Assembly: GCA_034422875.1 (NCBI GenBank)
Contig: DAOUJI010000066.1
Coordinates: forward strand, 8,714-72,713
Direction of reading: 5' to 3'
Length of the DNA stretch: 64,000 nucleotides
Origin: Dehalococcoidia bacterium
GTDB taxonomy: Bacteria; Chloroflexota; Dehalococcoidia; Lucifugimonadales; JAGWBF01
Shown piece by piece: positions 12,089 through 64,000 of this stretch. The notes beneath the pieces are model-generated. The model was not told the DNA's origin and did not search any database. It saw nothing but the letters and a program-made list of their open reading frames with translations. Within the stretch, counting starts at the first letter, position 1. Every line of letters starts with the position of its first letter. Both the position numbers and the translations under genes were made by a program.

Positions 12089-13465
12089 TTAGCTGTGGAC
12101 CTTACCATGAGAGGGCTCCAAGGCTTGCGCCGGAGCTGCCTGTTCTTCTGTGTAGAAGGTGTACCTCTGGAGGTCCGGCTCCTCAGCGGGAAACTCTTCG
12201 ATAGGGCGCCGAGCGTCCTCGCCCGGATGGGCGAAATGAGAGGGGCGGACGGCCCGCTCACAGTAACAGCAGATGAACCGCGTCACCGGAGCCGTGCGCA
12301 ACGAAAACCGGGCCGTCGTACTCATTGGCTCGTTGTTCACGGCACAGGACGGATTGTCGCATCTGATGTTCCCGGACACTTCCATGGGCGCCTCAACAAT
12401 CCGATGTTCGTTCTCTCCTCTTGTTCTCCAGGGGTGAAGCCCAAGCATTAGCGCGATCAGGGCCATTCGGACCGGCACTCCGTTCCGGGCCTGCTCGAAA
12501 TATTTGCTCCGGCTGTCGGTGTCCACGTCGGGGGATATTTCGTCCACCCTGGGCAGGGGATGCAGCACGACGGCTTTGGAAAAATCTGGCTGCTTCAGAA
12601 CATCGGCGTTGATTCGCGGGTAGCGCCCTGGGGAAGCCTGCCCCTTTCCATCCGCGTCCCTTTCGGCCTGTCTCCGGGTCACGTAGAAGGCCAGGGAATC
12701 GTCCTGGCCCAGCTCCAACTCAGCGGACCCGAACAGCGTCAGACTGTGTGGTTCGCTTGGAGTCATGTAAATGGCGTCTACGATGCCTCCTTCAGCGCTT
12801 GAGTCCTCGCCATAGAGGGCAGACAGCCCGGCGTGGCGGACCTCTTGAGTGGGTATTCCATATTCGGTCTCTATCTTGTCGACTACGTGCTCCGGCAACC
12901 CCAACCCTTCGCCGGGTAGACAAATCACCCCTGACCCGAACCGGAGAAGCGCGTACACCAGGGAGTGGACCGTGCGGCCGTTCTTCAGGTCTCCGCACAG
13001 GACGATTTTTCTACCTTCCAGTGTGCCGAATTGCTTGCGCAGGGTGTAGAGGTCAAGCAAGGTCTGGGTAGGATGCTCGTGGCCTCCGTCGCCCGCGTTG
13101 ATGACAGGAACATCGCTGTAGTCGGCTGCAAGACGGCTGGCGCCTTCCCACGGGTGGCGCAGGACTATGAAGTCGGAGTACCCGCTCCATATGCGGATAG
13201 TGTCGGCCAGCGTCTCGCCCTTTTCGACAGATGACGTGCGGGGGTCGGCTACAGTGACCGCCGAGCCGCCCAGTCGTTTCATGGCCGCCTCGAAGGAGCC
13301 GCGTGTGCGGGTGCTGGGCTCCAGGAACAGGCTTCCCATGATTTTCTTGGAAGCCATACCATAGAAGCTGTCCCTGTCGGTTTCTACCGCCAAGGCCAGG
13401 TCCAGGATGTCTTCGATCTGGCCCACAGACAGGTCGTCGATGGAGACAAGGCTGCCTTTATACAT
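12089..13465 (-). CDS. pyrB: aspartate carbamoyltransferase catalytic chain fused to a PyrI-like zinc domain
   Basis: N-terminal ATCase signature ([19 protein letters not shown]). The C-terminal ~115 aa carry a 4-Cys motif, [14 protein letters not shown]...[10 protein letters not shown], like the Zn domain of the regulatory chain PyrI. At 458 aa it is longer than a plain PyrB. Confidence 0.85.
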
Positions 13466-28310: not shown

Positions 28311-28449
28311 CGCCGCCGCCTTCCAGGGCGGCTCAACTTCCCTACCTGTGCCTCATTCGTTCCGATCACGCTGACCGTGTTTTTGTGACGAATTGTCATC
28401 TGCTATTATTGGGTGAGTTGTAATACCTGAATAATTGAAGTCATTCACT

Positions 28450-30897
28450 ATGAAAGTCGAAAGGGTTGGGATTCCAACGATTGTTGTCGCCGCAATTGCC
28501 TTTTGGGTGGCCGCTGCGGCAATTGGGATCCTCTCCATCCCGAAGGTCCTGGCGCACGATCCGTCCTCAGGCGACTGCTCCTCTGGCATCGCTGTACCCA
28601 ACGCAGCCAGCAACCCGGGGCTGGTGTCCGACTGCGAAGCGTTGCTGGCGTCCCGGGACACTTGGTCCGGTCAGGCGACTCTTAATTGGTCTCAGGACAT
28701 CCCCATGGGAGACTGGGATGGGATCGCTCTCGATGGCATGCCGCCAAGGGCGACAAAGCTGATAGGCATCGGAGCGAAGTTGACCGGCTCGATACCCGCC
28801 GAATTGGGCAGGCTTGATAAGTTGGAAGAATTGAATCTGGCAGGAAATCACCTAACAGGCCCGATTCCACCCGAACTGGGTAACCTTGCTGATTTGCAAG
28901 TGCTGGTGCTTAACTCGAACCAGTTGACTGGTGCAATTCCTGCGGAACTGGGCAACCTATCCAGCTTGAAAGTCCTCCGACTTTCCGAGAATCGGTTGGA
29001 CGGTCCTATACCCCCAGAGCTGGGTCGATTGTCGACGCTGTTATGGCTGTCTCTCACTCAGAACCAATTGAGTGGGCCTATCCCTTCAGAACTGGGCAGT
29101 TTGCCTAATCTGGTGTTTCTTTATCTCAGAGGCAATCGGCTGATCGGCCATATTCCTTCGGATCTCAGTCGGCTGACTATGCTGTACGATCTTGACCTCT
29201 CTTACAATCAACTAAACGGTTCGATACCGGAAGAGTTGGGCCTCCTGTCCAAGTTGCAATTCCTAGACCTTACCAACTCTGGATTGAGCGGCCCAATACC
29301 GAGGGAATTGGGAAACCTATCCGGTTTGGTTTGGCTCAATCTTTCTTACAACCAGTTGAGTGGAGCAGTGCCCTCGGAGTTGGCGGGTCTATCAAAGTTG
29401 ACAAGACTTTGGCTCCATGGGAATCAGTTGACCGGGCCAATACCCTCTCAGTTGGGTAACCTCTCAAACCTGGTGGAACTGACCCTAGGGGGCAACGATC
29501 TCACCGGTACGATACCCACTCAACTGGGTAGCCTCGCCAACCTGGAATCTCTGTCCCTCGACTATAACCAGCTGACCGGGCCGATACCCTCGGAGTTGGG
29601 GAACCTGACCAAATTGCAGAACCTATGGCTCAACAGCAATCAGTTGAATGAGTCGATACCCAACTCGCTAGGCAACTTAATCAACCTGAAATCGCTAGAC
29701 TTGTCGAAGAACCGGTTGAAGGAGAACGTGCCCAATGAACTAGGCATCTTGGTCAACCTGCAATCATTGAACCTGTCAAACAACCGCTTGACCGGGACTA
29801 TCCCAGTTCAGCTTGGCAGCTTATCCAGACTGGAGACGCTAAATCTCTCTGGCAACCAGTTGGATGGGACGATACCCGCAGAGCTTGGCGTGTTGTCTAA
29901 CCTGAGAGAAATCTGGATTGGTGGAAACCAGTTGACCGGATGCATACCAGCCGCTTTGAAAGCGGTGCTAGATAATGACCTCGCCACTCTCGGTCTACCG
30001 TTCTGCCACCCGTTGCAGGATGCTTGTGCCATCGAAGGGGCAGTGCCAAATGCGTACAATAATCACCAGTTGGTGGCCGACTGCTATGCTTTGCTGGAGA
30101 CACGGGATATCTTGGATGATTCCGGTTTGCTGAATTGGTCGGCGGACCTGTACATCACAGACTGGGATGGGGTCACAGTCAGTGGCACGCCGCTTCGCGT
30201 CACCGGGGTCCGGCTCGACAGCTACAAGTTAGGCGGTACTATACCGCCACAGCTATCCAGGCTGACCGATCTAAAGTTGCTGTCCCTAACTTACACCCAA
30301 ATGACCGGCCCGATTCCAACTGAATTAGGCAGTTTCTCCAACTTGAAAGAACTATACCTAGGCAGTAACCAGTTGACAGGCCCGATTCCCGCTGAGTTGA
30401 GTAGTCTCTCCAATCTCCGCCATCTCTACCTCAGCAGCAACCGTTTAGATGGGACGATACCGGCCGCACTAGGGGGCCTCGTCAAGCTTGAGGAACTGGC
30501 CCTCTCCTATAATCAATTGACCGGTTCAGTTCCTGCTGAACTGGGCAACCTAACCAGGCTGCAACGACTGAGACTGTCCCACAACCAATTGACCGGGGAC
30601 ATACCGGCCGAGTTAGGACAACTCGCAAACCTAACGGAACTGAAGCTTGCTGGGAGCCAGCTGACCGGGTGCATTCCGCAGGGATTGAGAGATGTAGCAG
30701 TCAATGACTTTGGCGGCCTCGGCCTGCCGTTCTGCATGTTGACCGAGGAAGAGTTGCTCGACCGGTATGACGGCAACGGCAACGGGACCATCGAGAGAGA
30801 CGAAGCCCTTGACGCTGTGGCAGACTACTTCGCAGACCTAATCAGCAGAGATGACGTGTTAACCATCATCTCACTCTATTTCTCGTCGTCCGGTTGA
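28450..30897 (+). CDS. secreted leucine-rich-repeat protein, plant-type 24-residue LRRs, with C-terminal EF-hand/dockerin-like module
   Basis: An N-terminal hydrophobic anchor/signal is followed by two LRR blocks of about 17 and 7 repeats of LxxLxxLxLxxNqLtGpIPxELGn. Each block is preceded by a Cys-containing cap (...DCEALLASRD...LNWS...DWDG...) and closed by ...GCIP...LPFC. The C-terminus reads YDGNGNGTIERDEALDAVADYFADLISRDDVLTIISLYFS. G+C is lower than in the neighbours. Confidence 0.85.
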   Translation: MKVERVGIPTIVVAAIAFWVAAAAIGILSIPKVLAHDPSSGDCSSGIAVPNAASNPGLVSDCEALLASRDTWSGQATLNWSQDIPMGDWDGIALDGMPPRATKLIGIGAKLTGSIPAELGRLDKLEELNLAGNHLTGPIPPELGNLADLQVLVLNSNQLTGAIPAELGNLSSLKVLRLSENRLDGPIPPELGRLSTLLWLSLTQNQLSGPIPSELGSLPNLVFLYLRGNRLIGHIPSDLSRLTMLYDLDLSYNQLNGSIPEELGLLSKLQFLDLTNSGLSGPIPRELGNLSGLVWLNLSYNQLSGAVPSELAGLSKLTRLWLHGNQLTGPIPSQLGNLSNLVELTLGGNDLTGTIPTQLGSLANLESLSLDYNQLTGPIPSELGNLTKLQNLWLNSNQLNESIPNSLGNLINLKSLDLSKNRLKENVPNELGILVNLQSLNLSNNRLTGTIPVQLGSLSRLETLNLSGNQLDGTIPAELGVLSNLREIWIGGNQLTGCIPAALKAVLDNDLATLGLPFCHPLQDACAIEGAVPNAYNNHQLVADCYALLETRDILDDSGLLNWSADLYITDWDGVTVSGTPLRVTGVRLDSYKLGGTIPPQLSRLTDLKLLSLTYTQMTGPIPTELGSFSNLKELYLGSNQLTGPIPAELSSLSNLRHLYLSSNRLDGTIPAALGGLVKLEELALSYNQLTGSVPAELGNLTRLQRLRLSHNQLTGDIPAELGQLANLTELKLAGSQLTGCIPQGLRDVAVNDFGGLGLPFCMLTEEELLDRYDGNGNGTIERDEALDAVADYFADLISRDDVLTIISLYFSSSG

Positions 30898-52064: not shown

Positions 52065-52205
52065 TAGAACTCGATCCAGGCAGTTGCGGTCTTAACCTAT
52101 GTGCGAGACGTTAAAACGCTGCTGACTTGACATCGAGGCGGCGCTGCCAAGATATGCCCGAAAATTGGCAGGTCTTAACGCGTTGGAGAAGGGGTGGATC
52201 GGGAA

Positions 52206-55049
52206 ATGCTGCGAATGACAAGAATTCCTATTTTCTTCCGCGTCACTTTGGTGTTGGTTCTTCCGGCAGTTCTCCTTGCCTGCGAAATCGGAACGCAGCC
52301 CACAGAGAATGGCGCCTTGACACCGACAGTCGAGGAACCGGTTGGGGCGGCAACGGAAGAAGGGTTGCCCACGGCAACCGGATTGCCGGGAGATGCGACG
52401 GCAACACCGGCCTCGCGGTCGATGTCTGGACCGTCGGCTTCGACAGCGGCGAAGAGGCTGACCCCGGAGGAGAAAGAACAATGGGCCCTGGATTCCCTTG
52501 ATGTCATCCAAAGAGCCGACCCTTCCCTGGCCCAAGCTCTCTCTGGATTGCCTTGGCTCTCCGACGGCTTCACCGGGGATGAGGCTCGGGCGCTCGACGT
52601 CATACGGCACTTTGCTGAGACAGACCTGAAAACAGCAAACTCCGTCGTGAACGTGCTTCAATTGTCAGGTGCAGTTGAGGAGATTCACGCGGATGCCCTG
52701 GGATCATTGGATTACATCCTCCGAAAGGACCGCGTACGAGGCGAGAGCCTCGTCAACCAATCGTGGTTTCAGGATGGGTTGACAGACCAAGAGACCGCGC
52801 TGATCGTTGTCCTTCGGGATGTCGTTGAGGAGAACCAAGAAGTTTTCGACGACTTGATTCAGGGAGGTCGCGTACGTTCCGAAACCCTGTCTCTGTCCTC
52901 TGGGGATGTGGACCTGTTCCTCATCCGCCGGCCTTCCCTGGAATATGTCGACGAGAGTGTTTTCGATGATCTGGGCGCCGCCGTCAAGGCTATCGAAGAG
53001 TTCATGGGTCCTCCATGGGTCAAGAGCGATGTCATTCTGCTTGTGGAACTTGACATCGATCTCTTCTCACCTGAAGGGGGGAGCAACTATGGCACACACA
53101 TGTCAATCGTGGTTCCGGAACCTGGAGCCCCGGCGCCCCGACAAGCCATCTACCACGAGCCAGCCCACTACTACTTCAGGCTCGACATTTTCCCCGAGTG
53201 GCTGGCTGAGGGAGCATCGGACTTTCTTTTCTACTCCGTTGTAGGTAGAAACCTCCAGGCGCTATATGCCAGCGTGCAAAAAGATGTCGCGTTTTACTGC
53301 GAATGGGTCACGCCAAACCAGGACGTGAACACGGTTCAAGAGTTGCTCGATTACGTGCCGCCGGCAATATCTCTCGGGGTCGAATTCGGGGTCGGGTTCG
53401 AAGTGTGCCCCTATCGGATGGGGTCGTCTTTCCTGCTGGCAATGGACAATGCCCTGGGACGCGAGGTCGTCTCGTCTTCGTTACGGGAATTGTATAGGTT
53501 GGGCGAAGCAAAAGGCTCGCCGGTGACCGAGGACGAGATTTACCAGGCATTCCTGGACAATACTCCTGCGGCGAAGCAGAGCGAATTCCGCGACCTGTAC
53601 TATTTTCATCATGGTGGGCCAGCATCCGACCATATCCCTGTCGGGCCTCCTCCATCCGGTTCGGTCCACTACGGCAGGCCCATCCCTGGATATGAGCCTA
53701 CCGGTCCGGCTGCCCTCGCTTCGGACAGGGAGGCTCTGGCCGCCATTTACAACGCCGCAGGCGGCCCCAACTGGAATAACTCCGAAAACTGGCTGAGCGA
53801 CGCTCCTCTCTACCAATGGCATGGCGCCACATCCCAATACTGGGACGAGAACACTGCGGATGAGGACGTGGTCCCCGCGGGCGACTACCGTGTTTACGGG
53901 CTTCAACTTCACGGCAACGGGTTGAGCGGTCCGGTGCCACCTGAACTGGGCTTACTCTGGTGGCTGGAGGAGTTGTATCTCAGCGACAACCGGTTAACCG
54001 GACCTATACCGCCGGAACTAGGCAACCTGCACACCCTCAGCCGGTTGAGCATGTCAGGGAATCAGTTGAGCGGACCGATACCGCCGGAGTTGGGCAATCT
54101 GGGCTTGACCGAGTTGGGGTTGTCGTTCAACCGGTTAAGCGGCGAGATTCCGCCGGAACTGGGCAGGTTGCGAGGCCTGCGGGTGTTGGCGCTCTCCGAT
54201 AATGAGCTAACCGGTCCGATTCCTCCGGAGCTGGGCGCTCTTGGCAATCTGAGATTTCTGGACCTCTCGCGCAACCGGTTGAGCGGGGATATACCCCCGG
54301 AACTGGGGAATCTCACTAACCTGCAAAACTTGCGCCTCTCCGGGAACCGCTTGACCGGCTGCATACCCGCCTCTCTGCGGAGCCAATTGAGCCCGGCTTC
54401 TATCCTGGGAGACCTGCCGTTCTGTGGGACTGCACCCTCGGTGACCTCCGATGGGGCGGACCGGGCAGCGCTGGTTGCCCTTTACAACGCCACTAATGGC
54501 CCCAACTGGGCAAACAACGACAACTGGCTGACTGACGCGCCCTTGAGCGAGTGGCACGGCGTCACCACTGACGACGATGGCCGTGTAGTAGACCTGACTC
54601 TCTCGGAAAACCGCTTAAGCGGAGAGATGCCCCGGGAGCTGGGCAACCTCGACAAGCTGCGTAAGCTGTGGCTCCCACGGAACCGGTTGACCGGGGAGAT
54701 ACCGCGGGAGCTTGGCAAACTGTCCGGCCTGCTCTTCCTGGAGCTCTCAAGCAACCAGTTAAACGGAGAGATACCTCCGGAGTTGGGCAACCTGACCAGA
54801 CTGAACGTTCTAAGCTTGAGCATAAACAACCTGAGTGGGGAGATCCCCCCGGAACTGGGCGGAATCTCTAACCTGAGACAGCTTCAGCTCAACCGGAATG
54901 AGTTGAGCGGCGAGTTGCCGTCGGAGCTGGGTGGCCTCACCAAACTGAAATGGCTGGTGATCAGTGACAACCAGTTGACCGGGTGCATACCTCGCTCTCT
55001 GGAGAACAGTTTGGAACTCATTGACACTGACCGTCTGCAATTCTGCTGA
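52206..55049 (+). CDS. lipoprotein with gluzincin-like (HExxH...E) peptidase-like domain and two plant-type LRR blocks
   Basis: Lipobox ...PAVLLAC. AIYHEPAHYYFRLDIFPEWLAEGASDF resembles the HExxH-(18)-E / WLxEG arrangement of M1/MA-clan peptidases. Two N-cap motifs follow (DREALAAIYNAAGGPNWNNSENWLSDAPLYQWHG and DRAALVALYNATNGPNWANNDNWLTDAPLSEWHGV), each leading 6-7 LRRs of LxxLxxLxLxxNrLsGeIPpELGn that end in GCIP. Confidence 0.8.
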   Translation: MLRMTRIPIFFRVTLVLVLPAVLLACEIGTQPTENGALTPTVEEPVGAATEEGLPTATGLPGDATATPASRSMSGPSASTAAKRLTPEEKEQWALDSLDVIQRADPSLAQALSGLPWLSDGFTGDEARALDVIRHFAETDLKTANSVVNVLQLSGAVEEIHADALGSLDYILRKDRVRGESLVNQSWFQDGLTDQETALIVVLRDVVEENQEVFDDLIQGGRVRSETLSLSSGDVDLFLIRRPSLEYVDESVFDDLGAAVKAIEEFMGPPWVKSDVILLVELDIDLFSPEGGSNYGTHMSIVVPEPGAPAPRQAIYHEPAHYYFRLDIFPEWLAEGASDFLFYSVVGRNLQALYASVQKDVAFYCEWVTPNQDVNTVQELLDYVPPAISLGVEFGVGFEVCPYRMGSSFLLAMDNALGREVVSSSLRELYRLGEAKGSPVTEDEIYQAFLDNTPAAKQSEFRDLYYFHHGGPASDHIPVGPPPSGSVHYGRPIPGYEPTGPAALASDREALAAIYNAAGGPNWNNSENWLSDAPLYQWHGATSQYWDENTADEDVVPAGDYRVYGLQLHGNGLSGPVPPELGLLWWLEELYLSDNRLTGPIPPELGNLHTLSRLSMSGNQLSGPIPPELGNLGLTELGLSFNRLSGEIPPELGRLRGLRVLALSDNELTGPIPPELGALGNLRFLDLSRNRLSGDIPPELGNLTNLQNLRLSGNRLTGCIPASLRSQLSPASILGDLPFCGTAPSVTSDGADRAALVALYNATNGPNWANNDNWLTDAPLSEWHGVTTDDDGRVVDLTLSENRLSGEMPRELGNLDKLRKLWLPRNRLTGEIPRELGKLSGLLFLELSSNQLNGEIPPELGNLTRLNVLSLSINNLSGEIPPELGGISNLRQLQLNRNELSGELPSELGGLTKLKWLVISDNQLTGCIPRSLENSLELIDTDRLQFC

Positions 55050-55102
55050 GGCCATGCGCCCCAACCACTTTGTGACCTTAATTCATAACTAGGGAGTGTG
55101 AT

Positions 55103-56039
55103 ATGAAGCAACTGTACACCTGCATCATCCTGACCGTGCTGGCTCTTGCGGCTGTTGTTGGCGCCGCCCGCGCCTGAGTCCGGCTCAACACCGGACGCGA
55201 CAGGCACGACGCCCACAGCCCCTGAGGAGTCAAGCGAGACGATGCCTGCGACCGGCTCAACGCCGGCTACGGGGAGTGGCCGGGATCCACAAGGGTCCAA
55301 GCCAACCAACGCGCCCGCAGCCACTGAGGAGTCAAGTGAGACGATGCCTGCGGCTACACGGACCGAAAGTGTGGTAACCCAGTTCGCCTCCGTCAGCGGG
55401 GGGAGGCTCCACACCTGCGGTGTGAGGGCGGACGGCTCCGTCGCCTGCTGGGGGTATGATAGTCATGGCCAGACCGCGCCGCCGGACGGAGAGTTCGCCT
55501 CTGTAAGCTCGGGGTCGGAGCACACCTGCGGAGTGAGGGAGGACAGCTCCGTTGCCTGCTGGGGGGATGATAGTGCGGGCCGGGCCACGCCGCCGGATGG
55601 GGAGTTCGCCTCCGTCAGCGCGGGGTGGGAACACACCTGCGGGGTGAGGGTAAACGGCTCCGTTGCCTGCTGGGGGGATGATAGAGAAGGGCGAGCCACG
55701 CCGCCGGATGGGGAGTTCGCCTCCGTCAGCGCAGGGTGGGATCACACCTGCGGCGTGCGGATGGACGGCTCCGTCGCCTGCTGGGGGAATAATCACCATG
55801 GCAAGGCCACGCCGCCGGATGGGGAGTTCGCCTCCGTCAGCCCGGGGAAACATCACACCTGTGGCGTGAGGGTGGACGGCTCCGTAGACTGCTGGGGGGC
55901 GGATGCTGATGGCCGGGCCACGCCGCCTGAGGGGGGGTTCGCCTCGGTCAGCGCGGGAGATGACTTCACCTGTGGCGTGCGGATGGACGGCTCCGTTGTA
56001 TGCTGGGGGGATAGAGCCGGAATAATTCTCGCCAGGTGA
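55103..56039 (+). pseudogene. RCC1-repeat secreted protein, signal peptide out of frame (frameshifted paralogue or assembly error)
   Basis: An SD (AGGGAG) plus ATG 55103 encodes MKQLYTCIILTVLALAAVVGAARA and then TGA (55175-55177). The repeat-bearing frame (track ORF 55146-56039, six FASVSxGxxHTCGVRxDGSVACWGxD units) is +1 relative to it. Alignment to the paralogue at 56276 shows about 20 nt missing at the signal-peptide/lipobox junction. Confidence 0.5.
55251..55452. repeat. near-identical DNA segment shared by the tandem RCC1 paralogues (partner at about 56480-56680)
   Basis: ACCGGCTC.ACGCCGGCTACGGGGAG.GGCCGGGATCCACAAGGGTCCAAGCCAACCAACGCGCC.GCAGCCACTGAGGA.TCAAGTGAGAC.ATGCCTGCG... is conserved almost base for base between the two genes. 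Confidence 0.8.
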
Positions 56040-56275
56040 ATAACCGGCCGGGGAGCGATTCGGGCTTTGCCGGGGCGCACAGAATCTCATCCTGACGAGG
56101 TGTGAAGGACGGCAAAGTCCGAATTCCCTGCCACGCCACACGTGCTGGAAGGGATGCCCCGACGGTCTCGGAGACTCCCGCGCACTGGCAACTCTTACAG
56201 GGGGTCCGTAGCCCTGCTCCTCGTGGTCCATGCTATGACTCTTTGTGAGCGCTGAACCAAATGAGGGAGGACGAC

Positions 56276-57553
56276 ATGAGGAAACAATACCTTTGCGGGC
56301 TGGCTCTGGTTTTGCTTGTGGCTGTTATGGGCGGCGCCTGCGGCGGCTCGGAGACATCCGCGCCTGAGTCCGGCTCTACGCCCGCCCTGACCGCCACACC
56401 GCGTGCCGATTCTATGGGACCGACGGCCACGGCCACTGCAATGGACACATCCGGCTCATCGGAGCCGTCCGAGCCTGAGACCGGCTCTACGCCGGCTACG
56501 GGGAGCGGCCGGGATCCACAAGGGTCCAAGCCAACCAACGCGCCGGCAGCCACTGAGGACTCAAGTGAGACTATGCCTGCGACCGCACGAACCGAAAGTA
56601 TGGTATCCCAGTTCGCCTCGGTCAGCGCGGGGAGTTTCCACACCTGCTGGGTGAGGGCGGACGGCTCCGTCGCCTGCTGGGGCGATGATCGGTATGGCCG
56701 GGCCACGCCGCCGGATGGGGAGTTCGCCTCCGTCAGCGCGGGGCGCCTCCACACCTGCGGATTGCGAGTGGACGGCTCCGTCGCCTGCTGGGGGGCGGAT
56801 GGAGAAGGCAGGGCCACGCCGCCGGATGGGGAGTTCGCCTCAGTCAGCGCGGGGGGCGATCACACCTGCGGAGTGAGGGCGGACGGCTCCGTCGCCTGCT
56901 GGGGCGATGATCGGTACGGCCGGACCGCTGCGCCCGGAGGGGAGTTCGCCTCAGTCGGCCCGGGGATCCTCCACACCTGCGGTGTGAGGGTGGACGGCTC
57001 CGTCGCCTGCTGGGGCGATGATCGGTATGGCCGGACCGCTGCGCCCGGAGGGGAGTTCGCCTTGGTCAGCGCGGGGGAACGTCACACCTGCGGAGTGAGG
57101 GCGGACGGCTCCGTGGCCTGCTGGGGTAATGATGATTATGGCCAGTCCACAACGCCTCGGCCTGATGAGACAGAGGCCAAAGGCGAGGCGTCCGATCTCG
57201 CGGTGGCCGAGTACGCGGCCTGGTGCGGGAAGCGCGCCGTTGACACAACAGCGCCGGAGACCTGGGGAGAGGCGATAAGACAGTTGGACAGGACGCTCGA
57301 CGACTACGAGAGCGTGACTGCACCGGAAGAACTGCAAGCCGTTCACAGCGCATTGATTACACTGTTAAAGGCCCAACTTGATTTATATCAGAGCCAGGAT
57401 GGGAGCGAGCCGTATGACGAATTCCTGTTCGGCCAGCAGCCCGATGTCCTAAAAGTGATCACACCTCTGTTCATCGCGATCGACGCTCTGGACGAGGAGA
57501 TCGTCTCCCAACTGGAAGATTCCGGTTGCCTGACCACAGACGATGGTTCTTAG
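56276..57553 (+). CDS. RCC1-repeat (RCC1_2-like short blades) secreted protein, possible lipoprotein
   Basis: ATG 56276 after GAGGGAGG. The signal peptide ends ...VAVMGGACGG and is followed by a Thr/Pro/Ser-rich linker. Five 37-aa repeats FASVSAGxxHTCGVRADGSVACWGDDRYGRxxxPxGE precede an alpha-helical C-terminal domain. Confidence 0.8.
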   Translation: MRKQYLCGLALVLLVAVMGGACGGSETSAPESGSTPALTATPRADSMGPTATATAMDTSGSSEPSEPETGSTPATGSGRDPQGSKPTNAPAATEDSSETMPATARTESMVSQFASVSAGSFHTCWVRADGSVACWGDDRYGRATPPDGEFASVSAGRLHTCGLRVDGSVACWGADGEGRATPPDGEFASVSAGGDHTCGVRADGSVACWGDDRYGRTAAPGGEFASVGPGILHTCGVRVDGSVACWGDDRYGRTAAPGGEFALVSAGERHTCGVRADGSVACWGNDDYGQSTTPRPDETEAKGEASDLAVAEYAAWCGKRAVDTTAPETWGEAIRQLDRTLDDYESVTAPEELQAVHSALITLLKAQLDLYQSQDGSEPYDEFLFGQQPDVLKVITPLFIAIDALDEEIVSQLEDSGCLTTDDGS

Positions 57554-57694
57554 TTGTTACCGGGATCTGACGCTATCTTAGGAAACCTGGATTGGAGAGT
57601 ATCCGGCAGGCGACGAGATGGCTGGCTCTGCCCAATAGTGCTTGCCGTCGCTCTCTCCGGTAGCAAGCCCGCCAAGTTTCATGTAGCGGCGTCT

Positions 57695-59287
57695 CTAGCG
57701 GCTGAAGATGGGGATGGGCAGTTTCCGAATAAAGAACGAGACCACGAACAGCGCCAGGCCAACTCCCATGGCTGTTGCGCACAACGGGACCACACCCGAG
57801 ACAATGTCCGAGACCATGGACGTGACCACATCAGAGGAGATTTCGACGACGCTTGTCGGAATATCCGGCTCATCCACGATCAGGTTGTCCAATAAACTCT
57901 CAATCGCCGGCTTGGTCACCAGGGCTACGATAAGGCATATGGCGCCGCTGACAAACAGGACGATTCCGGGAAAGCGGAACAGAGACCCCATATGGGGAAA
58001 CTGCAAAGCGCCCAGCAGCAGTGACCCCACGACCACCGCGACTATGGTCAGCGTCAACCCTAATCCGGTAGTCGCTATGTAGTCCCTGGCAGGTTCCAGG
58101 TCCTCCAGAAATTCCCGCCGGGTCTGGCCGCTGTCTTCAGCAGCGACCTCAATTAAGTCCAGGCGGCGGTCTTCGTCCAGCTCTTCCTCCACGAACTCCT
58201 CGATTGTTTCGTCGATGAACGGACCCGCCACCGTGGTCGCCGTTATCTTGATCGCTCCCTTAATGTCGCCTTCACTAAGCGGGAGTTTGATAGCCTCTTC
58301 TTGCTCCTTCAGGGCGTCGATGGCTGACTGGGTAAACGCGGGCTCGGCCTCCAACTCTTTGATGGCGCGGTCGAAGATAACGTCGGAGACGCTGTTGCTC
58401 AGGGACTCAGGGTCCCTCAGCTCAGGTATGGTCTCAGGAATCCGGCCCTCCGCCAGCTCCTTCCAGAGAAAAGCGATCTCCTCCGCCATTTCGACGGCGC
58501 CGTCAACCTCCTGGGTCGGGATATCATCTATGGCCTCCGACAGCGCTCGGTTGATGACAGGAGTAGCGACTGAAGACGCGCCTGTTCTGAGCGCCCCTTT
58601 CATGTCGACAGCGATAAGGGAAACCTTTATCTCGTCCTCTTGTTGCTGCAAACCGGTGATTGCGGACTCGGGAAACGCCGGGTCGGCTTCCAGTTCCGCG
58701 ATGGCCAGATCGAAAATATATCCCGCAAGGCTGTCATTCAGCGACGACGGGTCGCTCAGCGCCGGGATGGCTTCAGGAGGCTGACCCTCTTCAAGGTCCT
58801 TCCAGAGAATGGCCAGTTCGTCCGCCATTTCTTCAACGTCAGCGACTTCCTTAGTTGGAATCTCGTCGATGCGTCGTTCGATGTAGGCCAACAACGTGGG
58901 TTTAATGTTGTCAATAGGCTCTGCCAGTTCTATGAAAACCAGCGCCTCTTCGGAGTCTCGTTTCAGGTAGTCGAGGGCGCCGGAGAGAGCGTTCTCCACC
59001 TGGCCTTCCAGATAGGCTGGAGGAAGGATGCTGCGGGTGACCTCAATCACGTCCTCATGGGGCACTTCGACGCCGGCCACCAGATAGTCGGTCTGCTTCT
59101 CGAATTCCGGGTCCAGCAGGACCTCGTCGTAAATCCGGTCGTAGACCGAATTCTCAGAAATGTTCTCGGTGTAGAAATCCGCGGACAGGAAGTTGCTGCG
59201 GAAGCCGCTGACAACCACAAAGCATATGAATCCGACGATTATCACTACCGCCAGGATTAACCCCAGTATCGGACGCAAGACCGCCAT
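57695..59287 (-). CDS. hypothetical membrane protein with internal tandem ~110-aa repeats
   Basis: The start is moved to ATG 59287 (MAVLRPILGLILAVVIIVGF...). It has an N-terminal TM helix, a large acidic helical region with two tandem repeats (EIPTKEVADVEEMADELAILWKDLEEG... and DIPTQEVDGAVEMAEEIAFLWKELAEG...), and C-terminal TM helices. Confidence 0.6.
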   Translation of the reverse strand: MAVLRPILGLILAVVIIVGFICFVVVSGFRSNFLSADFYTENISENSVYDRIYDEVLLDPEFEKQTDYLVAGVEVPHEDVIEVTRSILPPAYLEGQVENALSGALDYLKRDSEEALVFIELAEPIDNIKPTLLAYIERRIDEIPTKEVADVEEMADELAILWKDLEEGQPPEAIPALSDPSSLNDSLAGYIFDLAIAELEADPAFPESAITGLQQQEDEIKVSLIAVDMKGALRTGASSVATPVINRALSEAIDDIPTQEVDGAVEMAEEIAFLWKELAEGRIPETIPELRDPESLSNSVSDVIFDRAIKELEAEPAFTQSAIDALKEQEEAIKLPLSEGDIKGAIKITATTVAGPFIDETIEEFVEEELDEDRRLDLIEVAAEDSGQTRREFLEDLEPARDYIATTGLGLTLTIVAVVVGSLLLGALQFPHMGSLFRFPGIVLFVSGAICLIVALVTKPAIESLLDNLIVDEPDIPTSVVEISSDVVTSMVSDIVSGVVPLCATAMGVGLALFVVSFFIRKLPIPIFSR

Positions 59288-59406
59288 CACAAAAACCAAG
59301 CCACACCTCGTCTTTACGCCTACGACCCGCTGCGGGCGCCGACTCTCCGGCGTACTATACCAGACTCGGCAGAGCAGGATTACGGTACAAGAGGTGCCGT
59401 TCCGGC

Positions 59407-59841
59407 TCAATAGACCAGGGACTGCACCCAGAAAGAGCATCCCCACAGCTCGGCTCCGCCGATGTTATGCTTGCGCCTGGGTTCGGCTTTCACGCACTCG
59501 GCCGCGGGCAACCCCTCAAGGATGACCCTGCGCATCAGGCTCTTCACTGAAGACGGACTATTTGCTGACACATACTTTTCCAGCTCTTCGTAGGCTTCGG
59601 CGTCGTCGGACAGGTCTACCAGTACCAGCACTTCCAGGTTGTATACCGACTGAGGGTCGGTGGCACGGTATTCGGCGGCCGCCGAGTGGTTGGATGCTTG
59701 CAAGTCCCGGATTACAGCCGCAGGAAACTCCTGGATGCTGTCCGGCGGGTGCTTGTAGACCCTGAGACCGTCCACGCTCCCTAACTGGGCCGCCATCTCG
59801 TCGATGATGGCTTTGAGTTCCCCCGGCGTTGGAACTACCAT
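59407..59841 (-). CDS. phage head-tail joining / head completion-like protein (tentative)
   Basis: 144-aa ORF overlapping the upstream connector gene by 7 nt. Its position and size match HK97 gp10/DUF3168-like proteins, but sequence recognition is weak. Confidence 0.4.
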   Translation of the reverse strand: MVVPTPGELKAIIDEMAAQLGSVDGLRVYKHPPDSIQEFPAAVIRDLQASNHSAAAEYRATDPQSVYNLEVLVLVDLSDDAEAYEELEKYVSANSPSSVKSLMRRVILEGLPAAECVKAEPRRKHNIGGAELWGCSFWVQSLVY

Positions 59842-60683
59842 CCCTGACCTCCCATCGGGTTCTTGCGGTAGGCGGCCAGGAGCAGCGCCACGTCCGGGTC
59901 CAAGGCTTTGGATACTCCGCCCAGCCCGGTGCGGCGCAGGTCCGGCGCCATAAAGCCTGCGTCACGTCGTTTCCACAGGCGCGAGGTCTGTATGAGGCAG
60001 GCCTCTGTGACCTCGTTGGGGTATACGAGCCGGGCTATGTGCGAGTTGTCGACGTGGGTCGCGGCCGTTGTTCCGTTGACGCCCCGTACGACGGTCAGCT
60101 CGTTGACCGACACTGCGGTGACATACAACTGCTCATCGCCTATCAAGAGTGTGTGGCCTGGCGAAAGATTAGTTGAGTCGCTGACCGCAAGGCTGGTTGC
60201 GTCCGCGGACAGCTCCGCTCCCTGGTTCAACGCGGCGCCGGCGGCCTCCGTCACCTCCCTGTATCCCCACTTCCCGTTCACCTCCACCGTTCGGAGTCCG
60301 GCGGGAAAAGTGCTCTTGTTGCTGGCGTCCACATCCACCAAGACCCTCGTGTAGGGACGGCCCCAGGGCTTGTCCGGCTGGGCGTTAGAAGGATAGAGCA
60401 GGTAGTCCGCGACTTCCCAGGGCGTCTCGAAAGTACGGTCCCGATCGTCGTCGGTCTTCAGCGAGGTTACGCTTATCAGGTCTGGGACGCCCAGCTCCTT
60501 CCCTCCATCGCCGTCAAAGAACCGGTCCTCCTGGACGACGTAGAACCGCCGGTTGCAGTAATGGTCGATGAGCCTCGATACGGCCTCCAGAATGTCCAGC
60601 AACCTGGTGTCGTAGGCGTCGCCCGATATATTCAGGACGCCCGCCGATTTCAGCGTTGCAAGGTCGGCGTAAGCGTTAGTCAT
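59835..60683 (-). CDS. phage gp6-like head-tail connector protein with C-terminal extension
   Basis: N-terminus MTNAYADLATLKSAGVLNISGDAYDTRLLDILEAVSRLIDHYCNRRFY matches the gp6-like connector pattern (y.tl.elK..l.i...d..l..li.aa...ie.yc.r.f). GGAGG SD. Confidence 0.6.
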   Translation of the reverse strand: MTNAYADLATLKSAGVLNISGDAYDTRLLDILEAVSRLIDHYCNRRFYVVQEDRFFDGDGGKELGVPDLISVTSLKTDDDRDRTFETPWEVADYLLYPSNAQPDKPWGRPYTRVLVDVDASNKSTFPAGLRTVEVNGKWGYREVTEAAGAALNQGAELSADATSLAVSDSTNLSPGHTLLIGDEQLYVTAVSVNELTVVRGVNGTTAATHVDNSHIARLVYPNEVTEACLIQTSRLWKRRDAGFMAPDLRRTGLGGVSKALDPDVALLLAAYRKNPMGGQGW

Positions 60684-60770
60684 AGCAGCCTCCGCGAGGC
60701 TCCTTCCCTTATACGAGAAGGAGCCGGGGGATCGTTCTCAAAATCAAGGAAGCAGCGGCGGGAACCTCCG

Positions 60771-61223
60771 CTACACCTCTACGTAGAAGATGTAGGCGTG
60801 TCCGGCAAGTCCGGCGGCGGAGCCCGTTGCTTTGCTGCCTGTGATGTAGTCTGTCCTGCCACCCTTGGCGTCCAGCCGTTGCATGGACTTGCCGTTGGCT
60901 CCTTTGTTCCCTATGTTGTCTTCCACGCCTTTGGCCGCGTTCACGTCCAGCCCGTCAATCAGGTCGTTCGACGACCGGTTTCCCCGCAATGCGGAACCGA
61001 AGTCTACGGTGCAAGCGTCCCTGGAACCGGTTGTCCGATCGATGACTAAACGCACCACGATAATCGGACCAGCCTCGGGGTTTCGCCAGGCCAACACTCC
61101 TCCTCTGGCGTCGGAATCCCCCAGTGCCGCCTTGGCGCACTTAAGGGCAGCCGGAGCTACGTCCGAGGTGAGCATGTCCTTCACTTGCTCGGCCAGGGGA
61201 CTGTCCTTTGACGGATTGGCCAT
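60771..61223 (-). CDS. hypothetical phage structural protein (decoration/cement-like position)
   Basis: 150-aa ORF between the capsid and connector genes with an AAGGAG SD. No family recognised. Confidence 0.4.
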   Translation of the reverse strand: MANPSKDSPLAEQVKDMLTSDVAPAALKCAKAALGDSDARGGVLAWRNPEAGPIIVVRLVIDRTTGSRDACTVDFGSALRGNRSSNDLIDGLDVNAAKGVEDNIGNKGANGKSMQRLDAKGGRTDYITGSKATGSAAGLAGHAYIFYVEV

Positions 61224-61253
61224 GTGTTACTCCTTGGCGCCGGGCGCAGCTGT

Positions 61254-62588
61254 CTACGCCACGCCCGTGATGTTGTACTGCAAGGCCGTGTGAGTGGCGG
61301 TGGACCTGCTTCCCGTCCTCTCTGCGAAAGCTATCCGCAGACTCACCACCATGATGTTCTGCCGTTTCTGGATGTCCCGGTCCGTTTCGATGGCCAGCTC
61401 CCGCCTGAAACCGACCCTCCACTGGGACCGGTTCACGATGAGGACACGTCCGGTGTTACTGCCGTTTCCGGCGTCGGTCACCTTTCCGTCGGTGTCCGCC
61501 AGCTTCATCTGCTCCGACACAATGACGGGGATGCCTTCAACCGCCCCGAGCTGCCCCCGGAGCACGGTGGCGTTGGGCCCCAGCTTGTCAAGAGTGCGGA
61601 AGTTGTCCACGCTGAGGGCGCGGATGTAAGTGTTCACATCCATGATGTAGGCCAGCTCCGAGGGCCTGACGCCGTACTTGCCCAGCTTGCCCCTTATCTC
61701 GTTGAACATCCCGTCGGACACCGCGGCGCTGTGGTCGTTGGCCTGCCCGGTGTTGTCCACCAGCGGCAGATGAAGCAGCCCGTCGAACCCCAGCAGCCAG
61801 TGTCCCTTGCCCACGTCGGACTTGGAGATGGTGGCCTCGTCCGCATTGATATTGTTCACCGTCGTCGAGTCTCCGTTGAGCACGACGTCGTCGATTACCT
61901 CGGCGGCGTTCCGCACCAGGCCGCTGCGCACCTCCTGGGCCATGGCGATCACCGCGTCCTCGTCCAACGTCAGGGACCAGGGCACCTGCCCCACCAGCTC
62001 ATAAGAAGTGAGAGTCTGCTTGGCGGTGTTCAGGGCAGTGGCCGTCACGGCCAGGTTCTCCGTGCCGGGGTACCAGTTCACGTCGCCCAGTTGAAGCGGT
62101 ATCTCGAAGGGGTCCGAGGGCATGTCCACCCTGGAGAAGAGGGGAGCCACCATGGTCTCCAGGTTCACGTCCATCCAAAGAGTCGAGGCTTCCTGGGTGG
62201 GGACCAGCTCATCCCCGGACCCGGCGGTGGTTGAGTCCATGGCCGCCTTCAGGTTCGACTGCCACTCCTCCAGCATTCGCGGATTCAGTCCTAGGGGCTG
62301 GCGAATCTGGGCGTTTAGGAGGCTCCGCATGTAGGCCAGGTCCAGCAAGTCCAGGCCCTGGTACTTCCCGTAGGGCACCCTGGGCCTGTCCTGTCCGCCG
62401 TACTTGCCCAGGAGCGCCTGCTTCTCTCCGTTCTTCCACATCTCCCGGATGCGGGCAATCTGGGCCGAGACCCGGCTCACCTCCTCCTTGAGCGGAGGAA
62501 GCTCGCTGTCGATGCGGCCGTTGTAGAACTCCTTCACTCCCGCAACTTCCTTCTTGATAAGGTCCAGGTCTTGAGCGCTGATGGTCAT
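61254..62588 (-). CDS. HK97-fold phage major capsid protein
   Basis: 444 aa. An N-terminal coiled-coil (delta-domain-like) segment MTISAQDLDLIKKEVAGVKEFYN...VSAQIARIREMW is followed by capsid-core-like ...LWMDVNLETMVAPLFSRVDMPSDPFEIPL... and ...QWRVGFRRELAIETDRDIQKRQNIMVVSLRIAF.... AAGGAGGAG SD. Confidence 0.85.
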   Translation of the reverse strand: MTISAQDLDLIKKEVAGVKEFYNGRIDSELPPLKEEVSRVSAQIARIREMWKNGEKQALLGKYGGQDRPRVPYGKYQGLDLLDLAYMRSLLNAQIRQPLGLNPRMLEEWQSNLKAAMDSTTAGSGDELVPTQEASTLWMDVNLETMVAPLFSRVDMPSDPFEIPLQLGDVNWYPGTENLAVTATALNTAKQTLTSYELVGQVPWSLTLDEDAVIAMAQEVRSGLVRNAAEVIDDVVLNGDSTTVNNINADEATISKSDVGKGHWLLGFDGLLHLPLVDNTGQANDHSAAVSDGMFNEIRGKLGKYGVRPSELAYIMDVNTYIRALSVDNFRTLDKLGPNATVLRGQLGAVEGIPVIVSEQMKLADTDGKVTDAGNGSNTGRVLIVNRSQWRVGFRRELAIETDRDIQKRQNIMVVSLRIAFAERTGSRSTATHTALQYNITGVA

Positions 62589-62630
62589 GACTCCTCCTTG
62601 AAATTTCTGGTCATTGTTCTTCCTTGGCGC

Positions 62631-63332
62631 CTAGGGAGCGGTCCGGGACACGATCCGTAGGCTCTCCACTACCTGCCGCAGGGCGTCATCCCAAGGCACT
62701 TGTTCCGTCTCCTCCAGCCCCTGGCTCACGTAGTACGCCTCCATTCTTGGCGAGCGGCTGAGGGCCTTTCGCAGGGCGCCCTGGTTGGCCGGAACAGGAG
62801 CCGCGCTAATCTCCAGCAGCTCCTGCTCCAGGAACCGCACTCCCAGTGCCTTGCCGGTGTCGGCGTCTCGTCGCAGCTCGTACCTGATTGGCCGGAACCC
62901 CACCGACACGCCCCGCTGGTATCCGTTCCGGTAGAGGTCTGCCACCTCTTTGGCAAAGTCCGTAGGTGCGAACTCCACCCTTGCCATGAGGTTGTTCCCC
63001 TCGGCCCAAAGCTCCCGCGTTCGGCCTATGGCCGGCCTGGTGTAATCGTGGGCCCAGAGGAACACCGGGTTTTTGAGATAGGACTGGAGCCGCCATCCCT
63101 GCAGCGAAATCACGTCGCCGTGGCGGTCTACGTCGTCGTTGGACACAACGAAAGCCATCTGCTGTTCTCCGGCCTCTGGCGACTGAGCTTGAGGAAAGCC
63201 CAGGCTTTCCACGGACTGTCCGGTGGCGGCTGAGGTCCACTTCCGCAAATAGGGCGCGTCGCTGAGTCCTCGCCGGTATGAGTCCAGCGACTCCAACAAC
63301 CGCTCCCGTTCCCATTGCTCGATGTCGTTCAT
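62631..63332 (-). CDS. HK97-family phage prohead protease
   Basis: ATG 63332 after GGAAGGGAGG. ...FVVSNDDVDRHGDVISLQGWRLQSYLKNPVFLWAHDYTRPAIGRT... is the prohead serine protease (S78/U35) core, and ...LLEISAAPVPANQGAL follows. Confidence 0.85.
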   Translation of the reverse strand: MNDIEQWERERLLESLDSYRRGLSDAPYLRKWTSAATGQSVESLGFPQAQSPEAGEQQMAFVVSNDDVDRHGDVISLQGWRLQSYLKNPVFLWAHDYTRPAIGRTRELWAEGNNLMARVEFAPTDFAKEVADLYRNGYQRGVSVGFRPIRYELRRDADTGKALGVRFLEQELLEISAAPVPANQGALRKALSRSPRMEAYYVSQGLEETEQVPWDDALRQVVESLRIVSRTAP

Positions 63333-63381
63333 GCAGGGCGCCTCCCTTCCGATTTGGTTTTCGCTCTTCCGGGGCCAGGGC

Positions 63382-63421
63382 ACAAAAAGAGGGACAGACC
63401 CAACTCAGGGTCTGTCCCTCT
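63382..63421 (-). terminator. strong intrinsic terminator (minus strand) immediately upstream of the prohead protease gene
   Basis: A perfect 14-bp stem, AGAGGGACAGACCC (63388-63401) with GGGTCTGTCCCTCT (63408-63421) and a 6-nt loop. On the minus strand it is followed by TTTTTGTG. Confidence 0.7.
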
Positions 63422-63640
63422 GGCGCTGAAGCAGCCGGGCTGGCAATCCGGCCTTTTGTGACGCTTCAAATTCAGGCTACCGCCCGCTGACCAAAGTGGT
63501 CAACGGCCCGATGTCACCCCCGCACCTGTCCCTGTCCATTCTGGTTTCCGAAAAGCTTTAAGCAGAGTAGAATGCATCCGTAGATTGCCCCCGCCCCTTA
63601 CCCCGCACGCATTCACCCATGGGAGGACCCACTAGCCACG

Positions 63641-64000
63641 ATGGTCCGCGTTCTGGTGATTCCTTTGGCTTCGGCGCTGGCAGTGATCATGCTGGTCCTG
63701 GCTGGGCTGGCAGTGACCACGGCTCACGCCACGGATCCCGATGTCAGCCCCTTCTACGACTCAAACGGCAACGGTGTGATTGACAGGGACGAGGCCATAA
63801 CAGCCGTCGCCGACTACTTCGCGGGCGTCATCACCAGAGACCAGGTCCTTGTCATAGTCCAGTACTACTTCAGCGGGGAGACCGTCCCCGACATAGAGGA
63901 CGTACTGCCGCCCGAGCCGCCCACCCGTTCTCTCAGCCAGGTCATCGAGGATGTGCGGCCGGCGGTGGTCTATGTCCGGAACGTCGATGTGGGCGTCGGG
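63641..64000 (+). CDS. secreted trypsin-like (HtrA/S1C-type) serine protease, 5' part, with N-terminal EF-hand/dockerin-like module
   Basis: Not in the ORF track because it runs off the window. ATG 63641 gives MVRVLVIPLASALAVIMLVLAGLAVTTAHA (signal) and then YDSNGNGVIDRDEAITAVADYFAGVITRDQVLVIVQYYFSGE. ...SLSQVIEDVRPAVVYVRNVDVGVG follows, typical of the start of an S1C protease domain. Confidence 0.6.
   Translation, partial: MVRVLVIPLASALAVIMLVLAGLAVTTAHATDPDVSPFYDSNGNGVIDRDEAITAVADYFAGVITRDQVLVIVQYYFSGETVPDIEDVLPPEPPTRSLSQVIEDVRPAVVYVRNVDVGVG

Follow-up and report, generated by a model that had tools for sequence, protein, structure and literature searches.

Head-morphogenesis genes of a probable vertically inherited, tail-less capsid-plus-packaging system in Dehalococcoidia

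Introduction

Why would a bacterial chromosome keep an intact set of phage head genes next to which the tail and lysis genes of a phage are not found? The question is raised by positions 59407-63332 (minus strand) of a 64,000-nucleotide stretch of DNA from a Dehalococcoidia bacterium of the Chloroflexota (hereafter, the window), where the genes for a prohead protease, a major capsid protein, and three further products follow one another. It corresponds, in reverse orientation, to positions 2255-66254 of a metagenomic scaffold of 97,113 bp (L001, the related loci being numbered in the same way). A sequence-only reading of the window had left the choice between a well-preserved prophage remnant and a domesticated capsid-forming unit whose other parts are encoded elsewhere. 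The first of these readings is rejected here and the second one is supported, as the genes for portal and terminase are found either beside the module or at another locus, and the deeper relatives are mobile and satellite-like. The region is probably the head-morphogenesis operon of a satellite-like capsid-plus-packaging system, chromosomally fixed and vertically inherited in Dehalococcoidia, with tail genes not found nearby, that would produce tail-less DNA-filled capsids.

Relatives of this module were sought in one genome per species, and the stretch visible around each locus covers ±10 kb. Gene-content maps are based on 80 loci, the best-scoring subset of 181 species-representative genomes with relatives, and gene order across loci was derived from a tblastn map combined with an unbiased clustering of the open reading frames (ORFs) of all loci. 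The set used for comparison with deposited phages contains 50,697 phage genomes. No description of the system was found in the searchable literature.

Genes and products of the head operon

The five head genes, all on the minus strand, are uninterrupted and co-directional, as first read from the sequence. The Shine-Dalgarno motifs listed at that time (GGAAGGGAGG, AAGGAGGAG, AAGGAG, and GGAGG) are present, and the G+C content of the genes (0.59-0.63) is indeed host-like, with a codon usage correlated to that of the host genes of the window (r = 0.92).

The first gene (62631-63332) encodes a prohead (head maturation) serine protease of the S78/HK97 type with 233 aa, matching PF04586 (E = 8.8e-9, a score of 36.1 vs. 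a cutoff of 21) and phrog_80 (1e-18) in profile searches. The second one (61254-62588) encodes an HK97-fold major capsid protein of 444 aa that matches PF05065 (2e-8), phrog_10 (3e-17), and TIGR01554 over residues 33-243. As the TIGR01554 alignment begins at residue 33, it takes in the N-terminal delta-like region of about 110 aa, in agreement with the sequence-only reading. Among the HK97-type models of NCBIfam, those of the capsid (52.6 bits vs. a cutoff of 27.5) and of the portal described below (130.2 vs. 112) are exceeded, whereas the protease remains below the cutoff of TIGR01543, proheadase_HK97 (41.3 bits vs. 59).

The product of the third gene (60771-61223), p150, finds no family in Pfam, PHROGs, or NCBIfam profile searches. 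Its AlphaFold2 model (pLDDT 80.5) is that of a small all-beta jelly-roll protein with a weak fold likeness to the cement protein of KHP40 and to chain H of the Pam1 capsid (template modelling (TM) scores of 0.38-0.47). The fold is common to many small tailed-phage proteins and fibre tips, with TM scores up to 0.59/0.65. The gene directly follows the capsid gene in 33-39 loci. From the model, p150 is a candidate capsid decoration or cement protein, and a position at the capsid surface is plausible.

The gp6-like connector recognized by the sequence-only reading is a head-tail adaptor of 282 aa (59835-60683) with a gp6-like N-terminal domain and an extra C-terminal domain (residues ~155-220). 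It matches phrog_442 (6.5e-16), which bears out the assignment although the gp6-like PF05135 stays below its cutoff (0.017). Residues 138-229 match phrog_1101, phrog_4406, and phrog_9851, and the C-terminal domain resembles domains of fibre and virion proteins. The adaptor is detected by tblastn in most genome loci, 75 of them entering the selection analysis. Its gene overlaps by 7 nt that of p144 (59407-59841), a neck protein of 144 aa. The match of p144 to the 'tail terminator' family phrog_17840 (1.9e-8) is in keeping with the head-completion-like label given to it earlier and makes it a putative tail-terminator or head-completion-like protein; its predicted fold model is unusable (pLDDT 42). 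In one relative (L008:11915-13174), the adaptor and p144 are fused into a single ORF of 419 aa.

The operon ends with a conserved membrane protein, mem530 (57695-59287, minus strand, 530 aa), recognized by a transmembrane scan and a family alignment. A membrane protein thus does stand downstream in the place of tail genes. It consists of one N-terminal transmembrane helix, acidic helical repeats of variable copy number, and three C-terminal transmembrane helices. As relatives align from about residue 50 of the 583-aa ORF called initially, the protein probably starts at the ATG at 59287, and the overlap formerly noted between this ORF and the 144-aa gene is probably an artefact of ORF calling. 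Among close relatives, the length varies between 421 and 567 aa by gain or loss of an internal repeat of about 110 aa (window 57695-59287 vs. L002:13314-14579). The gene stays beside the capsid gene where the adaptor and p144 are absent (L003, L010, and L013). Searches with mem530 in Pfam, PHROGs, NCBIfam, PADLOC, the PDB, and deposited phages returned no match.

At the sequence level, p144, p150, the adaptor, mem530, and a 691-aa protein of another clade (clade B, see below) have no significant match to solved structures. A defence system was considered as well and rejected, as PADLOC gave no match for any module protein; generic protease models match only a trypsin domain inserted in the locus.

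Portal, terminase, and the complete locus

Does the module really lack the packaging genes, as it had seemed? Only 668 nt separate the protease start from the upstream end of the window, and the source contig continues beyond it with a co-directional portal gene, of which the C-terminal 280 residues are encoded (PF04860, E = 4.5e-53; phrog_2662, 9e-65) before the contig itself ends. This gene terminates 2,079 nt upstream of the protease start and is separated from it by a 77-aa ORF and an opposite-strand trypsin-like gene. The apparent lack of a portal is therefore due to the ends of the window and of the contig, and the earlier statement that portal and terminase are missing does not hold, since close relatives carry a zinc-ribbon ORF, the large terminase subunit (TerL), and the portal in succession.

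The nearest relative, with 98% capsid identity and a contig of 3.1 Mb, shows the locus in full, in the order Fer4, small ORF, TerL, portal, 156-aa ORF, trypsin (opposite strand), protease, capsid, 150, 282, 144, and membrane protein. It is bounded by RadA and Fer4 on one side and directly adjoined by PALP-ThiF-L25-fmt-DnaA on the other. The window keeps the order PALP, ThiF, ribosomal protein L25, fmt, and DnaA, with leucine-rich repeat (LRR) and RCC1 genes inserted, so that the capsid module lies about 11 kb from dnaA; the remaining window is host DNA. The TerL of the nearest relative (phrog_2, 5.6e-32) is split in that assembly, and an intact TerL of 452 aa is found in L006-L009. Splitting into two ORFs by a frameshift is seen at L002:3935-5292 and L004:2590-4196, both long-read assemblies (23x and 6x), and not in L003 and L006-L009, where the gene is intact; the splits may reflect assembly errors or real inactivation.

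A zinc-ribbon ORF of 45-66 aa precedes TerL in 18/18 loci and lies between TerL and a hairpin described in the next section. Its matches are generic zinc-ribbon ones, all below cutoff, and designate no named family; an assignment as an Ogr/Delta-like or other named protein was rejected on these grounds. The protein cluster cl40, tried as a further candidate for the zinc-ribbon protein, is a helix-turn-helix (HTH) protein resembling the small terminase subunit (TerS). Besides the mobile relatives considered below, HTH TerS proteins occur in L022, L023, and L027.

The secreted protease that the sequence-only reading had placed upstream on the opposite strand is a trypsin-like S1 protease, divergent from the operon and outside the conserved core. 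Its 5' part occupies 63642-64000 (plus strand; PF13365, 1.7e-27; phrog_11383, 3e-38, a phage family of unknown function), and the gene continues on the source contig (L001:1187-2614, minus strand) to encode in full 475 aa with an N-terminal signal or transmembrane segment and an EF-hand/dockerin-like segment. This insertion between portal and prohead protease is present in L002, L006, L007, and L009 and absent from L008 and other clades, and in L003 its slot is taken by a D12 methyltransferase.

Promoter and leader hairpin

The head operon is preceded by a sigma-70-like promoter at 63474-63503 (minus strand), read from the sequence as a -35 box TTGACC (63503-63498), an 18-nt spacer, and a -10 box TAGCCT (63479-63474). 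In 75/77 relatives, the 170 nt that precede the hairpin contain the pattern TTGACN-N16-19-TAnnnT, as compared with 1.1% of random windows, and the median distance from the -10 box to the hairpin stem is 72 nt.

This hairpin with its T-tract (63374-63437, minus strand) was recovered both by a terminator scan and by a covariance model, R1, whose sole match in the 64 kb it is (57.9 bits, E = 2e-15). The stem spans 63421-63388 as AGAGGGACAGACCC-loop-GGGTCTGTCCCTCT, followed by TTTTT, about 59 nt before the ATG of the protease. The structure had been described as a 14-bp-stem terminator closing off the module. Hairpin and T-tract are real; the boundary is not, as the structure sits on the module's own strand between the promoter and the Shine-Dalgarno motif of the protease.

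A simple first scan detected the hairpin upstream of the protease gene in approximately 57/84 loci, with compensatory variants, and the covariance model raises this to 78/80 loci, the other two lying on contigs that end too early to include it. When 54 copies are aligned, 93.4% of the cells are paired and the flanking GGAC/GUCC positions are invariant. Pair 26-46 uses AU, GC, CG, and UA, another pair flips between GC and CG, and 0/500 shuffles reach the covariation score. The length of the loop varies from 3 to 9 nt across copies, which favours an RNA hairpin over a protein operator with fixed spacing.

The hairpin recurs 200-300 nt upstream of TerL in L002, L006-L009, and L020, and weakly in L014, and this second copy is also found at L122, a TerL-portal locus detached from the capsid genes (32.7 bits). 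In the 1.19 Mb of sequence scanned, the leader model matches only these two units. An extra motif with a lower score (27.8 bits) was noted at L046:8591-8657, downstream of a host SBP gene and away from the module genes; it may be an ordinary terminator resembling the hairpin by chance. No known RNA family accounts for the hairpin, as Rfam gives no match at E<=0.1 across 55000-64000. The layout of the leader, a G+C-rich hairpin and a U-tract between promoter and first gene, fits an intrinsic terminator, and fold prediction yields no convincing alternative fold. By analogy with the control of phage late operons, the hairpin can be proposed to act as a promoter-proximal intrinsic terminator serving as an attenuator or antitermination site.

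Distribution and clade variation

Homologues of the capsid number more than 1,568; identities among the top 120 range from 74 to 100%, and many homologues are on megabase contigs. Relatives occur in at least 181 species-representative genomes, all of them Dehalococcoidia, Chloroflexota, or SAR202 metagenome-assembled genomes, including many complete chromosomes. The portal is as widespread as the capsid (more than 1,000 homologues). IMG/VR supplies only fragments of at most 16 kb, and the nearest capsid of a deposited phage has an identity of at most 23%.

Nearly all of the 80 loci have the protease, the capsid, and the adaptor, and the genes accompanying them depend on the clade. In the window clade, the neighbours are p150, p144, and the membrane protein. 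Clade B carries a 138-aa homologue of p144, a 147-aa tube-like gene that it precedes, and a soluble 691-aa protein of unknown function with no match among deposited phages. In further clades, only small unknown genes separate the capsid and the adaptor, and the adaptor and neck genes have been lost from some lineages (L003, L010, L013, and L021). Three families of 'large terminal proteins' proved mutually unrelated in a profile-profile comparison; two such families are host genes encoding an ABC-transporter binding protein (cl6) and a gamma-glutamyltranspeptidase.

With the exception of the tube-like gene of clade B, tail, lysis, and integrase genes are lacking within ±10 kb at the 80 loci, as the sequence-only reading had observed for the window. 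No integrase homologue is found in the window, L001, or the 80 genome loci, nor is there any PF00589 protein among the called genes of L001-L005. Neither a regulator nor a primase is present among the genes between the housekeeping bounds in L002 and the window. Integration at a tRNA or att-type site was considered and set aside, there being no tRNA in the seven loci checked.

In-frame stops appear in the best tblastn alignments of the capsid (L041 and L077), the protease (L003, L004, L013, L063, and L080), and the adaptor (six loci). Some of them probably lie upstream of the true start, and others may denote pseudogenes or long-read or assembly errors.

Contigs L086-L099, filed as 'viral' in IMG/VR, fall within the chromosomal hairpin-bearing capsid clade, and at least one of them, L090, includes host ABC-transporter genes. 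Virus-prediction pipelines thus seem to misclassify the module as viral.

Selection and vertical inheritance

Is the module kept by its hosts or merely passing through them? Among the window's close relatives, the ratio of nonsynonymous to synonymous substitution rates (dN/dS), a check that the sequence-only reading had suggested, is 0.03 for the capsid, 0.05 for TerL, 0.07 for both the portal and p144, 0.11 for the protease, 0.18 for p150, and 0.22 for the adaptor. These values indicate purifying selection in the same range as that of the housekeeping flanks (PALP 0.04, ThiF 0.07, L25 0.21, and fmt 0.17). When identical genome pairs are compared, the dS of the module genes equals that of the flanks, which implies that the module diverges together with the chromosome. 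An excess of dS in the module genes was considered and discarded as a product of unequal genome pairs, as it is gone on identical ones. In the same way, capsid identity follows that of the neighbouring host genes SBP (Spearman 0.82) and GGT (0.64), the capsid being more conserved than both, and flank synteny is kept down to about 80% capsid identity. The search for a full prophage at this site, an outcome named in the sequence-only reading as favouring a deletion remnant, found none in any relative.

One genome has the small ORF, TerL, and portal among metabolic genes about 25 kb away from its capsid locus, and the upstream host synteny of this split TerL-portal locus recurs in another genome. 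Packaging and head genes are thus separable into two chromosomal loci, a division that a mobile element could not undergo.

Mobile relatives and origin

The most divergent relatives are IMG/VR contigs with capsids 59-64% identical and a circularly permuted order, namely adaptor and portal; HTH TerS and TerL; HNH, methyltransferase, and small genes; and protease, capsid, p150, and small structural genes. A tyrosine recombinase of the XerA/XerC-like type (E = 3e-17) is encoded by five of these contigs (L101, L102, L103, L112, and L115). Another one, L107 (IMGVR_UViG_3300018082_000006; 12,943 bp), has a direct terminal repeat of 123 bp and is for this reason regarded as a complete element of about 12.8 kb. 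It encodes the adaptor, portal, HTH TerS, TerL, HNH, a possible PolX-like nucleotidyltransferase, protease, capsid, p150, and small structural genes, and no tail. L107 is in itself a candidate capsid-forming satellite outside Proteobacteria and Firmicutes.

Tail genes occur in none of these divergent mobile relatives, and the hairpin in 0/6 of those searched. In the capsid tree, the hairpin-bearing chromosomal loci form one clade of 98 and the mobile forms branch outside it. Judging from these sequences, the chromosomal system is either derived from such tail-less mobile elements or sister to them; it most likely descends from a mobile element resembling a capsid-forming satellite and later gained a regulatory signal of its own.

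Proposed function and competing explanations

Two units would make up the system. The packaging unit, which begins just outside the window here, comprises a promoter, the GGGAC hairpin, the zinc-ribbon protein, TerL, and the portal, and the head unit a promoter, the GGGAC hairpin, protease, capsid, p150, adaptor, p144, and the membrane protein. The hairpin would be an intrinsic terminator that is off by default and overridden by some factor, so that overriding it would switch on both units together. Their products would assemble proheads from which the protease removes the delta region, the terminase would fill the shell with DNA through the portal, and the adaptor and p144 would close the neck, giving DNA-filled tail-less capsids. 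Such capsids might serve a DNA transfer beneficial to the host, either directly, like gene transfer agents (GTAs), or after docking onto the tails of infecting phages, like the phage-inducible chromosomal islands that form capsids (cf-PICIs).

Several observations weigh against this reading. The system is known here from its genes alone, from which the function of the particle is deduced. TerL is known from close relatives only, because the source contig ends inside the portal gene. The 147-aa gene of clade B matches the 'major tail protein' family phrog_10528 (2.3e-10), and as the search for tail and lysis genes covers ±10 kb per locus, such genes may lie elsewhere in the genomes. The loss of adaptor and neck genes in some lineages agrees poorly with particles having to attach to tails. 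Stops or splits interrupt genes at a few loci (capsid in L041 and L077, TerL in L002 and L004), the hairpin is degenerate at the detached loci L120 and L121, and instead of an attenuator it could be a site for packaging or for the binding of a protein, or an element stabilising the 5' end. Finally, the capsid tree is a neighbour-joining tree without support values.

Among the rival explanations, a still-mobile satellite of the cf-PICI type, integrated here and awaiting a helper phage for tails and lysis, is unlikely. Its structural genes are the structural half of the cf-PICI definition (PMC10085698), and deeper relatives do possess a tyrosine integrase, HNH, and an HTH TerS, including one complete 12.8-kb element with a direct terminal repeat. 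However, no integrase, regulator, or primase lies between the bounding housekeeping genes and no tRNA nearby, the flanks are syntenic down to about 80% capsid identity with an equal dS, and packaging and head units occupy separate loci in other clades. Distinctly unlikely, too, is the exaptation of the capsid shell without DNA transfer, for example as a compartment of the encapsulin kind, as a decoy, or for defence against phages sharing assembly parts. It would explain why only protease, capsid, and leader are adjacent in essentially every genome, why several lineages lack adaptor and neck genes and nearly all lack tail genes, and why, in the clade of the window, the capsid gene is constantly accompanied by that of a conserved membrane protein. 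Yet the portal and TerL equal the capsid in conservation (dN/dS 0.05-0.07, with more than 1,000 homologues of the portal) and have its leader element in common with it, PADLOC gives no match, and no cargo-type gene is conserved.

The possibility that the operon is the head cluster of a complete GTA or cryptic phage, with tail and lysis genes at other chromosomal loci as in the GTA of Rhodobacterales (RcGTA), is given very little weight. The system is already split, with TerL and portal 25 kb away in one genome, clade B keeps a terminator-like gene, a tube-like one, and the 691-aa one, p144 is similar to a tail terminator, and the gene search spans loci and not whole genomes. On the other hand, the ±10 kb around the locus contain no gene set of tail size in 80 genomes, the mobile relative known as a complete element of 12.8 kb is tail-less as well, and the leader model finds no unit beyond the two in 1.19 Mb. 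As for a prophage remnant left by a deletion and drifting to loss, it is effectively refuted. Most phage functions are indeed lacking, and foreign genes (trypsin and methyltransferase) stand between portal and protease. This reading is rejected because purifying selection is at the level of housekeeping genes (dN/dS 0.03-0.22, as in the flanks, with ORFs intact across 80 species), because relatives extend to at least 181 genomes, and because the regulatory element is conserved and private to the system; moreover, a full prophage at this position is seen in none of the relatives, and recent horizontal spread as the cause of conservation is contradicted by the equal dS of the flanks.

The fixed, vertically inherited capsid-plus-packaging system thus remains the preferred reading. 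A broader proposal can only be tentative: the system would be a class-wide, domesticated descendant of capsid-forming satellites in Dehalococcoidia, including SAR202 and sponge symbionts, with a two-operon regulon, a private leader-terminator hairpin, and tail-less DNA-filled capsids. It would then be either a new tail-less GTA or an immobilised satellite borrowing phage tails to move host DNA.

Other genes of the window

Eukaryote-like proteins are encoded at 52194-57553, 28435-30897, and 20463-22139, comprising two large LRR proteins, a Spondin_N/BACON/EF-hand protein, and the products of two tandem RCC1-repeat genes whose repeat units are near-identical. In the window, these genes separate the capsid module from PALP-ThiF-L25-fmt-DnaA, with which it is contiguous in relatives. 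Eukaryote-like proteins of the LRR and RCC1 types are typical of sponge-symbiont genomes. At 12089-13465 (minus strand), a 458-aa ORF joins the catalytic chain of aspartate carbamoyltransferase to a C-terminal PyrI metal-binding domain (PyrB-PyrI fusion).

Significance

To our knowledge, domesticated phage particles are confined to a handful of lineages and all examples are tailed, and we know of capsid-forming satellites only as mobile parasites of Proteobacteria and Firmicutes. The present system would link both, as a captured tail-less capsid and packaging machine of the satellite type. Its keepers belong to an abundant and mostly uncultured class, with deep-ocean SAR202, sponge symbionts, and soil and sediment Dehalococcoidia, and maintain it under housekeeping-level constraint. 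It offers a concrete candidate route of horizontal gene transfer in organisms without genetic tools. The loci also appear to form a natural series leading from satellite to host genes, with mobile forms carrying an integrase, fixed contiguous forms, and fixed split forms. The compact regulatory element, made of promoter, leader, and hairpin, marks every one of the regulon's parts and is suited to tracing those still missing. Lastly, a warning arises from the IMG/VR fragments, in which virus-prediction pipelines label genes of a chromosomal module as viral contigs.

Comparison with known systems

Encapsulins likewise are HK97-fold shell proteins kept by their hosts, but they come without the prohead protease, portal, terminase, and adaptor that are all conserved here. 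With the heads of HK97-like siphoviruses, the system shares the families portal_HK97, proheadase_HK97, and major_cap_HK97, the delta-like N-terminus, and the lack of a separate scaffold gene. It differs from them by a capsid at most 23% identical to those of deposited phages and by the absence of a tail module following the head genes.

Regarding regulation, the late control of phage lambda (PR'-tR'-Q) also places a promoter and then a strong intrinsic terminator shortly before head and packaging genes. In contrast to lambda, the window system has no Q-like gene or qut-like site, and one hairpin sequence, a putative counterpart of tR', recurs at two operons and, throughout a bacterial class, is conserved and covaries.

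The closest satellites are the cf-PICIs, which SatelliteFinder defines by an integrase, regulator, primase, TerS, HNH, TerL, portal, capsid, protease, adaptor, and connector, tail and holin being forbidden, and whose regulators are of the AlpA, MerR, or Stl types (PMC10085698). Like cf-PICIs such as EcCIEDL933, the system has its own TerL (seen in close relatives), portal, protease, HK97-type capsid, adaptor, and connector and neither tail nor holin, and its mobile relatives of about 12.8 kb, with integrase, HNH, and small terminase, are in the size range of satellites. A helper phage induces cf-PICIs and has its tails taken over by them. Unlike them, the lineage of the window is devoid of integrase, regulator, and primase-replicase and of att or tRNA bounds, is inherited vertically, can be split over two loci, and has a zinc-ribbon ORF in the place of a recognisable TerS or HNH. 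It belongs to Chloroflexota and not to Proteobacteria and Firmicutes, the kinship in sequence passing only through generic HK97 families.

With RcGTA, the system has in common phage-derived structural and packaging genes that are chromosomally fixed, vertically inherited, under purifying selection, and free of integrase and replication genes. The HK97-like order of terminase, portal, protease, capsid, adaptor, and neck is shared as well, together with dispersable loci. The system belongs to another phylum and is only a putative carrier of random host DNA, which GTAs package in heads too small for their own gene set and transfer between cells, and the tail tube, tape measure, baseplate, and fibre genes of RcGTA have no counterpart nearby. 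RcGTA is under host control of the CtrA/GafA type, whereas the system of the window apparently uses a leader hairpin of its own.

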